Assembly (NCBI GenBank): GCA_963718615.1
Contig: OY970368.1
Span: 608,001-672,000, forward strand
Direction of reading: 5' to 3'
Origin: an uncultured cyanobacterium
GTDB taxonomy: Bacteria; Cyanobacteriota; Cyanobacteriia; PCC-9006; JAAUQQ01
DNA: 64,000 nt
The notes beneath the pieces are model-generated. The model was not told the DNA's origin and did not search any database. It worked only from the letters and a program-made list of their open reading frames with translations. Made by a program: the position numbers and the translations under genes. Positions 773-30,345 of this stretch are shown piece by piece. Numbering within the stretch: the stretch's first letter is position 1; every line of letters begins with the position of its first letter.

Positions 773-1377
773 GACCTCACTTCTCCTACGGTTGTTTGAG
801 TCGGTTAATGGGGATGAAATGGGGGCCAACAAAGACAAAGCCAAAAAGAGGGGGAGGACTAGCGATCGCGGCACAGGCTGGGGACTGCGTTGAAGATGCT
901 AGGGAGATTTAGCCTTGCCGCTAAATCTAAACTCTAAAATCTAAAGCCAAAACACGTATCGAATCAAACCAAGCAGTCAGTACTTTTACTTTCAAGAGCT
1001 AGGAGTTACCGTGGAACTTGCGACGACTCCGTGTTTCTTGTGTTTATGATGTCATTGATCGAACCTGATCGTCCAGGATTGCACGTAGAGATTCGTCAGA
1101 GCTTCATACTCGGCTGCGTTTCTACAACGCCTGATAAAGTAGGCTGCGCCTTGATGGTTTCTTTATGAAATTAATGCTTTATTCCTGGGGGTTTTGATGA
1201 AGGATTGAAGAGGTTGAAAAGCTTTTTGGAGAGCATTTTATTTTCTTTTTTGAAGAGAATGCGATCGCTCCTTCCAGACCTCAACCCAAAGACCAAAACA
1301 CCTAGGATTTATCGTTTTTAACTCACCACAAAATACTAAAGATACACTGATCGCCTCCGTATATCCCCAGCCCGCAC

Positions 1378-28360: not shown

Positions 28361-29080
28361 GTGACTGTTTCTTGGCGCTATGGTTTGGCGCTCCACACCA
28401 CGACCCCAGAGCTGGGGCTGGCGATCGCCCCGATCTCCCTCCCCCAACCTCAAGATCCAATTCCCGACTCAAGTCCTACCGCAAGTCCCGATCCGGCCCC
28501 GACGCCCCCCCGTTTCCAGGTCCTCGACTTAGGTCGCGATCTGGGGAATCAACTGCACCTGCGGCTGCAAGCGTTTCTCCAACCTCAAACCTGGCAGGAC
28601 CTCGGCTATGTGGCGATCGCCGCCGGCCCCGGTGGCTTTACCGGTACGCGCATGGGCATCGTCGTCGCTCGGACCTTAGCCCAGCAGCTCGATCTGCCGT
28701 TGTTTGCAGTGTCTACCCTAGCCGCCTATGCCGTTGCCCAGTGGGCGGGGGAAACCGTGGCGCGATCGCAAGCCATCGCCCTCTCCATGCGCGCCCAGCG
28801 GGGAGAACTTTTTACTGCCCTTTATCAACAACCAGACCCCCACCAGCTGCCCCAGGCAATCTGGCCTGACCAGGTGATGACACCAGAGGCTTGGGCAGCG
28901 CAGCAGGCAACCTGGAGTATGCCTAGGACGGTGATGACCGTTGAAGGAGGGATTGCGGCTTCGGTGACCCAGGTGTTGGCGATCGCCCAATGTCGCTATT
29001 ACATCGGAGAACGCCCCCACTGGAGCGAGGCCAGTCCTTTCTATGGTCAGCATCCTGTGGTCTTGGTCCCCACCCCCTAG
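28361..29080 (+). CDS. tsaB: tRNA threonylcarbamoyladenosine biosynthesis protein TsaB
   Basis: LALHTT, GPGGFTGTRMG, AQRGELF, PFYGQHPV. Confidence 0.9.
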   Translation: MTVSWRYGLALHTTTPELGLAIAPISLPQPQDPIPDSSPTASPDPAPTPPRFQVLDLGRDLGNQLHLRLQAFLQPQTWQDLGYVAIAAGPGGFTGTRMGIVVARTLAQQLDLPLFAVSTLAAYAVAQWAGETVARSQAIALSMRAQRGELFTALYQQPDPHQLPQAIWPDQVMTPEAWAAQQATWSMPRTVMTVEGGIAASVTQVLAIAQCRYYIGERPHWSEASPFYGQHPVVLVPTP

Positions 29081-29394
29081 GGGAGGCGGCTGCCCCCCAC
29101 TGATTTTGGGTTATCCGTGCAAAAATAGAAACATTCGGGTCGGGTCACTGACGAAGCGCCTAGAGAAACGCATCTATCAGGTTTTATTCTGGGAATTCTC
29201 TAACTATACGAAACCCTAAAATTGCTTTCGCTCGTCGTTTCTCATCTAATCCTCCGAGAGACCCCTGGCTTTAGCCATGGGGAGGGATAGGAGCGCGACC
29301 GTGAGGGAGCAATTTGTGTTTCGCCCCAGAAGCTAAGACCTAAATCTACAAGATCTTTATGGAGCACAGCTTTCAACTATTCTAGAGTGGGTAT

Positions 29395-29435
29395 GGAAAG
29401 CAAAAACCAAGCTTTCCCTTGCACCTTGAAAACTG
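29395..29435 (+). promoter_or_regulatory. boxB-like hairpin plus boxA-like element
   Basis: GGAAAGC-9 nt-GCTTTCC hairpin, then GCACCTTGAAAACTG, close to the cyanobacterial rrn ITS boxA GAACCTTGAAAA; candidate -10 TATTCT at 29378-29383. Confidence 0.55.
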
Positions 29436-29510
29436 AAGTTATGGGGTTCTGGTCAGGAATGCTTGGCCAGGTAAAAACTTCAAGCAACAAGTAGATGTCT
29501 TAGAGACACC

Positions 29511-29679
29511 GTACCGTGGGGCTCACGGAATCGGACCTCTGCAAAGGGGTGAAAGCCTGTGGACTTGAGTAAGACGGGAACATAGCAACGTTTGTTGTCG
29601 TGTACGCATCGTGAATGAAGCAGGAAATCTTTGGAGCAATCCGGAGAATCCCCCGGTTTCAACCGTGGGGAGTAGTCAA
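29511..29679 (+). ncRNA. TnpB-type omegaRNA (reRNA) scaffold
   Basis: Motif order typical of IS605 right ends: ACCGTGGGGCTCACGG, GCCTGTGGA, GTAAGAC, TGAAGCAGGAA, GAATCCCC hairpin, TCAA; extra GCAA-capped hairpins. Confidence 0.7.
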
Positions 29680-29721
29680 CGGGCCATGACTGCCTGAGCA
29701 GTCACATCTACGCAACCCCCT

Positions 29722-30345
29722 ATGCAGCTCAAGCTTCCCCCCTATCCCCATAAAATTCGTCGTACTCGCCGCACCAAACGCCGCCTGTCTTGGCGGCGGC
29801 TGGTGGTGGGTAGCTTGGCCGTTTCCGTCGTGTTTTTTGGGGCCCAGCGTCAATTCAAGCTGTGGACGCTTCCGGCCCAAGCCATTGTGGTTCTGGGTGG
29901 CGAGGTCAATCGCGAAAACTTTGCAGCCCGCATGGCCCAGCAGTATCCCGATTTACCGGTTTGGGTTTCCTCGGGCACCAATCCTGAATACGCCGAATGG
30001 GTTTTCCTAGAACAGGGAGGCATTGAACGCGATCGCCTCCATCTCGACTACCGGGCGGTCGATACTGTCACCAATTTCACAACCCTCGTGGGTGACCTGG
30101 AAGCCTCAGGCATCCACAAGATCTATCTCGTGACCTCCCGTTCCCACATGCGTCGCGCTCGCATCATTGGGGAAATTGTTCTCGGCAGCCGGGGCATTGT
30201 GATGGCTCCCGTGACCGTTCCCTCGGAGATGGCCCAAGAACCTCTAAAAAAATCTATCCGCGATGGCGTAAGAGCCTTTCTCTGGCTAGTGACCGGCTAT
30301 ACCGGAGCCGATCTACGAGATATTCTTCGCACTAACCATTTTTGA
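29722..30345 (+). CDS. YdcF/DUF218 family protein
   Basis: AIVVLGG, AVDTVTNF, LVTSRSHMRRA. Confidence 0.88.
   Translation: MQLKLPPYPHKIRRTRRTKRRLSWRRLVVGSLAVSVVFFGAQRQFKLWTLPAQAIVVLGGEVNRENFAARMAQQYPDLPVWVSSGTNPEYAEWVFLEQGGIERDRLHLDYRAVDTVTNFTTLVGDLEASGIHKIYLVTSRSHMRRARIIGEIVLGSRGIVMAPVTVPSEMAQEPLKKSIRDGVRAFLWLVTGYTGADLRDILRTNHF

Follow-up and report, generated by a model that had tools for sequence, protein, structure and literature searches.

The 64,000-nt stretch analyzed here (hereinafter the window; positions 608,001-672,000 of contig OY970368.1, assembly GCA_963718615.1, from an uncultured cyanobacterium whose 6.1 Mb genome is labeled G000) carries a 438-bp mobile unit that, judged by its ends and content, is a non-autonomous IS200/IS605 element, i.e., one of the palindrome-associated transposable elements (PATEs). 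We propose, with a probability of about 0.6, that this PATE keeps both ends and the complete guide-RNA (omega-RNA) scaffold of a tnpB-only insertion sequence (IS), that tnpB has been replaced in it by a conserved RNA expression leader, and that its guide is used in trans. The core of this leader is a motif resembling the boxA of rRNA operons. Use of PATE omega-RNAs in trans has already been proposed in print; the conserved boxA leader appears new.

Ends, scaffold and guide of the element

The borders of the element (Table 1) are set by a second copy in the same genome (G000:C1:4958515-4958952), which was recovered by searching that genome with positions 29230-29700 of the window. The two copies are 98% identical over exactly 29242-29679, the sequence flanking the second is unrelated to the window flanks on both sides, and they are the two copies of the element in this genome. 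A first-pass annotation, made from the sequence alone, had described a protein-less IS200/IS605 element of about 430 bp that begins at 29248; the extent stands, while the true start lies 6 nt further left. The absence of a protein gene was likewise confirmed: the longest mechanically called open reading frame (ORF) has 60 aa and lies on the minus strand, the small ORFs having been taken without a protein-family search. The interior is read as RNA rather than coding sequence because its relatives show covariation and non-triplet indels. Every motif which that annotation named (TATTCT, the hairpins, GCACCTTGAAAACTG, the GCAA-capped stems and TCAA) is present at the place it gave. Rfam returned no family at its gathering score anywhere in the window; the sole match at E ≤10 on 29000-29900 was to mir-198, on the minus strand, and with E 2.8 and 17.1 bits where the gathering score is 70 it was set aside as chance.

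At the left border, TCATC begins after unrelated upstream DNA in all five related copies of the own genome, and the same border is found at three distinct tnpB elements of a second genome (G031) and three PATEs of a third (G139). By analogy with the CTAC and TTAC flanks of other IS605 elements here, TCAT or TCATC is probably both the target motif and the transposon-adjacent motif (TAM); the first four bases, TCAT, are accordingly best taken as target motif that probably lies outside the element proper. A target duplication is not seen at the flanks (GTTTC on the left, CGGGCC on the right), and terminal inverted repeats are absent.

Both ends of the element recur in two tnpB-only ISs of the same genome, providing the tnpB loci with matching ends for which the first-pass annotation had suggested looking. 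The first 72 nt (29242-29313) are 88% identical to the left ends of these ISs (at G000:C1:4763340 and 1853359), and the final 65 nt are 77-79% identical to the corresponding part of the two sisters. When the left- and right-end hairpins are folded as DNA, their energy is no better than that of shuffles (z 0.22 and -1.45, respectively), and we hold them to be real because of the compensatory differences they display relative to the sister tnpB elements. Comparison of the element by blastn and tblastx with the 12 tnpB loci of its own genome gave matches at the two ends only. Each sister IS encodes an intact 389-aa TnpB with HTH_OrfB_IS605, OrfB_IS605 and Cas12f1-like TNB domains, in which the catalytic motifs are kept (GIDLG, IAIEDL and HDRD), making this protein the candidate partner nuclease as far as its sequence goes. 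Genome-wide there are 12 TNB-domain matches and nine Y1_Tnp matches, of which seven are strong and six of those seven (137.6-135.1 bits) are nearly alike. The IS encoding these Y1 TnpAs has a CTAC flank and a different left end, sharing with that of the element only a GCGCGACCG..GGGAGCAA-type block.

Omega-RNA scaffolds reside at the 3′ end of tnpB and the right end of the IS, and characterized TnpB scaffolds are about as long as the 150-175 nt shared here. In a colinear alignment (A6) of four PATEs with the 3′ ends of seven tnpB ISs from four genomes, the region 29503-29679 corresponds to the 3′ ~165 nt of the tnpB elements, where it comprises the last ~130 nt of the ORF and a further ~46 nt. 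Across the 19 pairs of three tested helices 96.2% of the cells are paired, as compared to 37-51% with slid partners, and nine pairs show compensatory change. The same alignment displays a shared hairpin of the form CCGNG..CNCGG (29514-29518/29524-29528), a long-range helix (29556-29560/29620-29624) in which the window copy has a compensatory C-G, and a block, GTCTGTGGA..GTAAGAC..GAACA, common to PATEs and tnpB ISs. The GNRA-capped stem and the right-end hairpin are likewise common to both. An extra hairpin of ~22 nt is present in all four PATE rows and in none of the seven tnpB IS rows. The prediction of a TnpB-type scaffold is therefore borne out by homology to the tnpB 3′ ends of four genomes and by shared helices. 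An interior alignable to degraded tnpB coding sequence had been named as an observation that would count against the guide-RNA reading; the 3′ 175 nt do align to the 3′ coding sequence of tnpB and the 5′ module does not, and the former alignment supports rather than refutes that reading because omega-RNA scaffolds lie exactly there. In several genomes the right end of the small element is closest to that of a tnpB element of the same genome.

The flank that follows the terminal TCAA would serve as the guide. Its first 16 nt are unique in the own genome at 0 mismatches, and the second copy has a different flank, TCCCATTCTCCAAACATGTC; the two copies therefore have different guides, in line with the copy-specific guide that had been predicted. 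When four guides were searched against the own genome, no off-target site had fewer than 1-2 mismatches.

Table 1. Coordinates of the element and its parts, of the RNA-library contigs matching it and of its sister ISs (window positions unless a genome coordinate is given)
Feature	Position	Strand	Basis or remark
Mobile unit, 438 bp, TCATCTAATCC...GAGTAGTCAA	29242-29679	+	borders set by second copy
TCAT, probable target motif and TAM, directly 5′ of left end	29242-29245	+	shared left border of copies
Left end with subterminal hairpin CCCCTGGC-TTTA-GCCATGGGG (29262-29282)	29246-29313	+	homology to tnpB ISs
TATTCT, -10-like hexamer, candidate internal promoter	29379-29384	+	4/6 to TATAAT
Leader hairpin GGAAAGC-AAAAACCAA-GCTTTCC, A-rich loop, boxB-like position	29395-29401/29411-29417	+	sequence
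boxA-like motif GCACCTTGAAAACTG	29421-29435	+	rRNA boxA match
Covarying hairpin, with GAAGTT..CTGGTCAGG-AATG-CTTGGCCAG..AACTTC at 29435-29481	29434-29482	+	outer helix 29434-29440/29476-29482, inner 29448-29452/29467-29471
Omega-RNA scaffold region, homologous to tnpB 3′ end and right end of A-type (389-aa TnpB) ISs	29503-29679	+	colinear alignment
PATE-specific hairpin ACCTCT-GCAA-AGGGGT	29535-29550	+	in ~22-nt insertion relative to tnpB ISs
GNRA-capped stem TCTTTGGA-GCAA-TCCGGAGA	29628-29647	+	stem sequence wholly different in relatives, by eye
Right-end hairpin CCCCCGG-TTTCAA-CCGTGGGG	29650-29670	+	5/9 pairs compensatory
Terminal TCAA	29676-29679	+	GTCAA ends every copy
Putative guide CGGGCCATGACTGCCTGAGC (copy-specific flank)	29680-29699	+	role from established TnpB mechanism
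RNA contig X1	29325-29547		starts upstream of proposed start
RNA contig X2	29408-29680		plus 6 nt beyond
RNA contig X3	29441-29679		plus 9 nt of different flank
RNA contig X5	29503-29680		plus 70 nt of different flank
tnpB-only IS, 1325 bp	G000:C1:4763340-4764664	+	shares left and right ends with element
tnpB-only IS, 1325 bp	G000:C1:1852035-1853359	-	shares left and right ends with element

The leader module and its distribution

Upstream of 29503 the tnpB elements encode a zinc ribbon, and the small elements carry in that place the leader module, which is centered on the boxA-like motif. Its 12-mer GCACCTTGAAAA matches the cyanobacterial 16S-23S spacer boxA, published as GAACCTTGAAAA in the relevant passage of PMC8461337, at 11 of 12 positions; the longer GCACCTTGAAAACTG matches the boxA of the own rRNA spacers, GAACCTAGAAAACTG (three copies), at 13 of 15; and some other family members match the rRNA boxA exactly. 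The setting is similar too: the three own spacers have a hairpin, 5 nt and then GAACCTAGAAAACTGCATAG, and the element has a hairpin, 3 nt and then GCACCTTGAAAACTG. In the relatives a hairpin of other sequence, with an AAAAACC-type motif, lies just 5′ of boxA (one or two hairpins; by eye).

Four sequences spanning window positions 29419-29540 served to build a covariance model (R1), with which we aligned 25 distinct sequences. The conservation of boxA among copies, which the first-pass annotation had proposed checking, is evident in the family consensus G[A/C]ACCTTGA[A/C]AAC, with ACC in all 25 distinct sequences, although this count is somewhat biased in that the model itself contains the boxA block. 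This block is unpaired in the consensus structure and is its best-conserved unpaired stretch (mean 1.52 bits, as compared to 1.02 over all unpaired columns). A pairing of the boxA GAACC with an invariant GGTTC was considered and is not supported, position 2 varying among A, C and T with no compensating change. Downstream, the R1 structure has 95.0% of its cells paired as against 67.6% in shuffles and 26-48% with slid partners, and 19 of its 21 pairs show compensatory change; the alignment was fitted to the model and leans to its structure, yet the slid controls share that bias and score far lower. GGGGTTC and GGTAAAA stand as conserved blocks in the internal loop of the covarying hairpin. A U-G pair occurs unchanged in 25/25 sequences, and the + strand is therefore the RNA strand. 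Taken together, the pattern of substitutions identifies the 5′ module as a structured RNA of the + strand.

The interior of the element is conserved between genera, with identity down to ~69%. BLAST searches of 40 relatives picked up other genera through weak similarity to element positions ~178-385, and in these alignments the hairpins are kept by compensatory change. With R1, matches were found in 17 of 151 sampled cyanobacterial genomes (a sample of the class), in 15 of the 132 of good quality and in 17 of 81 genera, with 15 copies each in G105 and G031, nine in G017, six in G139 and five in the own genome.

The module shows a restriction to protein-less loci. Among 30 fetched R1 loci, none has tnpB upstream on the same strand; tblastn of these loci with three own TnpBs gave one weak match (L055), to a TnpB-like ORF that is downstream and on the other strand; and the eight upstream same-strand ORFs (367-449 aa) comprise five unrelated host proteins and three without a Pfam match. 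The neighboring genes vary from locus to locus and lie on either strand. Conversely, R1 run with filters off on 25 tnpB loci gave a best E of 0.14, covering the shared scaffold hairpin only, and the boxA 15-mer, allowing up to three mismatches, does not occur at the tnpB 3′ end in any of 42 tnpB loci (113.5 kb). The sole two 3-mismatch matches in those loci are both in L072 and outside the IS. A simple deletion of tnpB, against which the first-pass annotation had argued, would thus leave unexplained a module that has no counterpart in tnpB loci by motif (42) or model (25) despite its conservation in several genera. The stretch 29427-29475 was also read by eye as a possible remnant of zinc-ribbon coding sequence; this was unconvincing and was dropped, the same motif and model searches showing no counterpart in tnpB loci. 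As regards L072 (G139:C429), the matches at ~643 (+) and 1305-1319 (-) are two inverted copies of GGAACCTCGAAAAATTG, one of them 21 nt past the right end of the tnpB element; these may represent another repeat into which the tnpB element inserted.

The module is joined to right ends of different types. Four copies in G105 define a ~380-bp element with the order TTAC, left-end hairpin, TATAAT/TATAAG, hairpin, GAACCTTGAAAACTA, RNA and GTATGTCAA. A second PATE family in the own genome (432 bp; two copies, 98.6% identical, C1:43513-43943 and 389875-390306) carries GAACCTAGATAACAG, in which the CCTAG variant is common with the own rRNA-spacer boxA, together with the covarying hairpin; its final ~116 nt and the 3′ ends of a 7-copy tnpA+tnpB IS match at 72-76%, and its left end also resembles that IS. 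A third own element, present as a single copy (C1 ~4259910-4260335; L060 ~1330-1755), has a TTAC flank and GCACCTTGACAAGTG and ends in GTGTCAA. In G031, a 13-copy family carrying the module matches the 3′ end of an IS with a 410-aa TnpB (83-87% over 112-125 nt). The TnpBs of the 7-copy IS and of the 410-aa IS are only 30-31% identical to the 389-aa A type, and by these matches PATEs of three or more TnpB lineages begin with one and the same module. That the module stays constant while the scaffold tracks the local nuclease is more in keeping with a host-directed expression signal than with a part that binds the nuclease. Extending this, we tentatively suggest, at well short of even odds, that hairpin-boxA-hairpin might be a portable Nus-dependent guide-RNA expression cassette, which in cyanobacteria spread or was exchanged between IS605 elements without proteins that belong to these three or more TnpB lineages.

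Two apparent links to introns were rejected. A group I intron (RF00028, 60.2 bits, L060:1909-2167) lies ~300 nt after the third element and had raised the idea of an IStron; we judge it an unrelated neighbor because it sits in an apparent tRNA-Leu gene. That putative gene is interrupted by the RF00028 intron and begins ~70 nt after the element. Similarly, element positions 196-246 matched a reverse-transcriptase ORF (L018; E 8e-4), a hit that the model search did not recover and that we treated as chance. The ORF in question (L018:1485-2438; G033:C125) has a YADD motif and follows a 339-aa ORF in another frame, and it may be a group II intron-type reverse transcriptase that is frameshifted or interrupted.

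Expression, proposed mechanism and competing explanations

Across the family, a -10-like hexamer matching at least five of six positions occurs 25-95 nt before boxA in 14 of 26 distinct sequences, as compared to 6.6 expected from shuffles. Four RNA-library runs from three studies each yielded one short contig 95-99% identical to the element (Table 1). Every run covered less than half of the stretch, the contigs give no starts, strand or proof of transcription, and the comparison is without a silent-stretch control, so that they are weak evidence of expression. The parts that no contig covers (29100-29324 and beyond 29697) say nothing either way. Contigs of two further studies contain near-identical copies with other flanks, and on this evidence of sequence the element occupies other sites in environmental relatives. 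The own genome encodes a NusB domain. A Rho RNA-binding domain was not found in this complete genome, and cyanobacteria are described as lacking Rho in a passage of PMC12642595. With Rho absent, a role for boxA would be in processivity, in carrying transcription past the scaffold hairpins and into the guide, or in co-transcriptional folding.

Based on these comparisons, we posit the following mechanism. A Y1 TnpA encoded elsewhere in the genome would move the element as single-stranded DNA and insert it 3′ of TCAT. From an internal promoter (TATTCT at 29379) a ~300-nt transcript would start, running through the leader hairpin, boxA (29421-29435), the covarying hairpin and the scaffold (29503-29679) into the flank, which would become the copy-specific guide. 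The boxA would most likely load NusB/S10 onto RNA polymerase, as in rRNA operons, and the polymerase so modified would see the untranslated, heavily structured RNA completed and correctly folded. The 389-aa TnpB of the two sister ISs would bind the scaffold in trans and, after excision, cut the empty site, i.e., TCAT followed by CGGGCCATGACTGCCT, with recombination restoring the element. Here we infer promoter use, the 5′ end, Nus-factor binding and TnpB loading.

Several observations weigh against this proposal. The consensus scan called no sigma-70 promoter at the element, the family-wide enrichment of the -10 is modest, and TATTCT itself is a poor match. One of the RNA contigs, X1, covers sequence from 29325 onward, which is upstream of the transcript start proposed here. 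Position 2 of the motif is C here as opposed to A in the rRNA boxA, and in a genome without Rho the classical anti-Rho role of boxA cannot apply. The scaffold resembles that of the candidate partner ISs at just the 77-79% of the last 65 nt, less further in, and has the 22-nt insertion. The own genome has just two copies of the element, and the co-directional genes downstream of both may be compatible with read-through from outside or with an outward-promoter role.

In the sister IS at G000:C1:4763340 (L004:1573-1615) a perfect TATAAT stands 7 nt before the tnpB ATG, so that a leaderless mRNA may be the source of this TnpB. The CACAG..TCAA..CTAT..ATG of the same stretch resembles, by eye, window positions 29364-29394 around TATTCT, a likeness by which the -10 of the element would be the old tnpB promoter.

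An unlikely alternative, albeit one deserving attention, is that the boxA-like block and hairpin form a structural part of the guide RNA that is bound by TnpB and replaces the portion of the omega-RNA overlapping the zinc-ribbon code, the resemblance to boxA being convergent or fortuitous. The module indeed lies directly 5′ of the scaffold, the boxA block, GGGGTTC and GGTAAAA hardly vary, a common property of protein-binding sites, and a Rho-less genome has no obvious need for classical antitermination. However, a TnpB-specific part would not be expected to be joined to the scaffolds of such divergent TnpB lineages, nor to be missing from the 25 tnpB loci searched by model with filters off and from the tnpB 3′ ends of the 42 searched by motif; the shared scaffold is already about as long as those characterized for TnpB; and the agreement with the rRNA boxA (11/12 to 13/15, exact in other members) extends to the hairpin just upstream, as in the rRNA spacer.

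We regard it as improbable that the element is mainly a mobile outward promoter and antiterminator, reading into the downstream host gene and offsetting the polarity of the insertion, with a vestigial guide function. Both copies are intergenic and co-directional with the next gene (DUF218 at 42 nt in the window, a GNAT acetyltransferase at the second copy), and a boxA-modified polymerase would be expected to read through. Yet two copies are too few for an orientation rule, the neighbors in other genomes are unrelated and on either strand, and a promoter has no need of scaffold helices kept by compensatory change.

There is very little to commend the view that the element is a decaying, functionless remnant of internal deletion in a tnpB element, kept only because TnpA can still move it. 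A true deletion derivative does exist in the same genome, where only two copies of the present element are found: a 161-bp relative (G000:C1:4121375-4121525) retains 150 nt on the left but just GGGGAGCAGTCAA of the right end, and looks like an internal deletion between two GTGGG repeats with the whole RNA part gone. Against decay stand the interior conserved across genera to ~69% with compensatory changes, the presence of a module found in no tnpB element searched, and families of up to 15 copies per genome.

Equally far-fetched is a host-adopted RNA, whether it guides a nuclease-dead relative of TnpB to one fixed target (TldR-like regulation) or is another regulatory small RNA, as might be thought from the G031 relative (L010:1500-1756) with its terminator ~40 nt after GTCAA and no recognizable left end; in the own genome neither end is damaged, the flanks differ between the two copies and the candidate partner TnpB keeps its catalytic motifs, and the flank of the G031 relative has in its genome one exact match (itself) and one with 2 mismatches, as compared to 3+1 for a reversed control, so that the fixed-guide or domesticated reading was rejected for that relative for want of a second target.

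Relation to known systems and further observations

PATEs were reportedly named in Haloquadratum walsbyi (PMC3119063). They often encode omega-RNAs, which would need to be used in trans by the TnpB of other elements, according to Meers et al. 2023 (PMC10055086), who noted such PATEs for Geobacillus stearothermophilus, and a PATE with IStron ends is shown in 10.1101/2023.11.20.567912. The idea of a guide RNA used in trans, put forward for this element in the first-pass annotation, is consistent with the present comparisons and is less new than was implied there, having already been published. The element has in common with known PATEs the lack of a protein gene, IS605 ends shared with same-genome tnpB elements, a right-end omega-RNA with the flank as guide and an expected dependence on TnpA and TnpB in trans. 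It differs, as far as the main-text passages of Meers et al. go, in having tnpB replaced by a conserved leader of -10-like hexamer, hairpin, boxA and covarying hairpin.

The canonical omega-RNA of tnpB (also termed reRNA, e.g., that of ISDra2) is a right-end scaffold that runs up to a TCAA-type cleavage motif, with the guide coming after it. The element shares this layout and is homologous in sequence to tnpB 3′ ends, but its RNA neither overlaps nor is co-transcribed with tnpB, and has its own leader and the 22-nt extra scaffold hairpin. As in the boxB-boxA arrangement of rRNA operons, the 12-mer agrees at 11/12 (exactly in relatives), with a hairpin a few nucleotides upstream and a position that would be near the 5′ end of a long untranslated structured RNA; in contrast to those operons, this boxA is on a mobile element, is not followed by a D4-like CTGCATA and operates, if at all, in a Rho-less host, where any role would be in processivity or folding and not anti-Rho. 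Stringer et al. reportedly described in 2020 boxA elements in the CRISPR array leaders of enterobacteria. Both cases would place a Nus-factor signal ahead of the untranslated guide-RNA precursor of an RNA-guided nuclease; they differ in that here the nuclease is TnpB and not Cas, there is a single guide per transcript, the carrier is a mobile element and the host lacks Rho. A boxA leader on TnpB guide elements was not found in print, within a search of literature outside subscription journals and supplements, and the search for orphan or stand-alone guide RNAs of this sort returned nothing relevant.

The boxA-cored leader would be one conserved cyanobacterial answer to the question of how protein-less guide carriers make their RNA after losing tnpB together with its promoter and translation. 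If it has a true boxA function, it would tie a transposon guide RNA to the host Nus machinery, in parallel to the boxA of CRISPR leaders, and would provide a concrete intermediate on the way to guide RNAs as genes apart from their nuclease. Should the portable-cassette suggestion hold, transposon guide RNAs would have been transcribed on their own, behind an rRNA-type leader, long before there were CRISPR arrays, a natural step between omega-RNAs embedded in tnpB and guide or tracr RNAs transcribed separately; a selfish element would then have co-opted the machinery of rRNA transcription in a phylum that lacks Rho. Being small and natural, the element would also lend itself to expressing TnpB guides in cyanobacteria, and it raises the question of the role of boxA in a phylum without Rho.

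Turning to the setting, the element adjoins a TsaD/TsaB-family gene (28361-29080) and the DUF218 gene (29722-30345), all on the + strand, its right border falling 42 nt before the start of the latter; the second copy likewise precedes, co-directionally, the GNAT acetyltransferase gene. HIP1 palindromes, GCGATCGC, flank the insertion site in the window. Elsewhere in the genome a solo right-end-like sequence (G000:C1:2238587-2238617) is embedded in a near-perfect palindrome of greater length, TTGACTACTCCCCCGG-TTTCAA-CCGGGGGGAGTAGTCAA, and no left end lies close by. The closest RNA relative in another genus is that of G031 (L010:1500-1800; G031:C1:2899632-2899930), which comes after a phycobiliprotein-like ORF.

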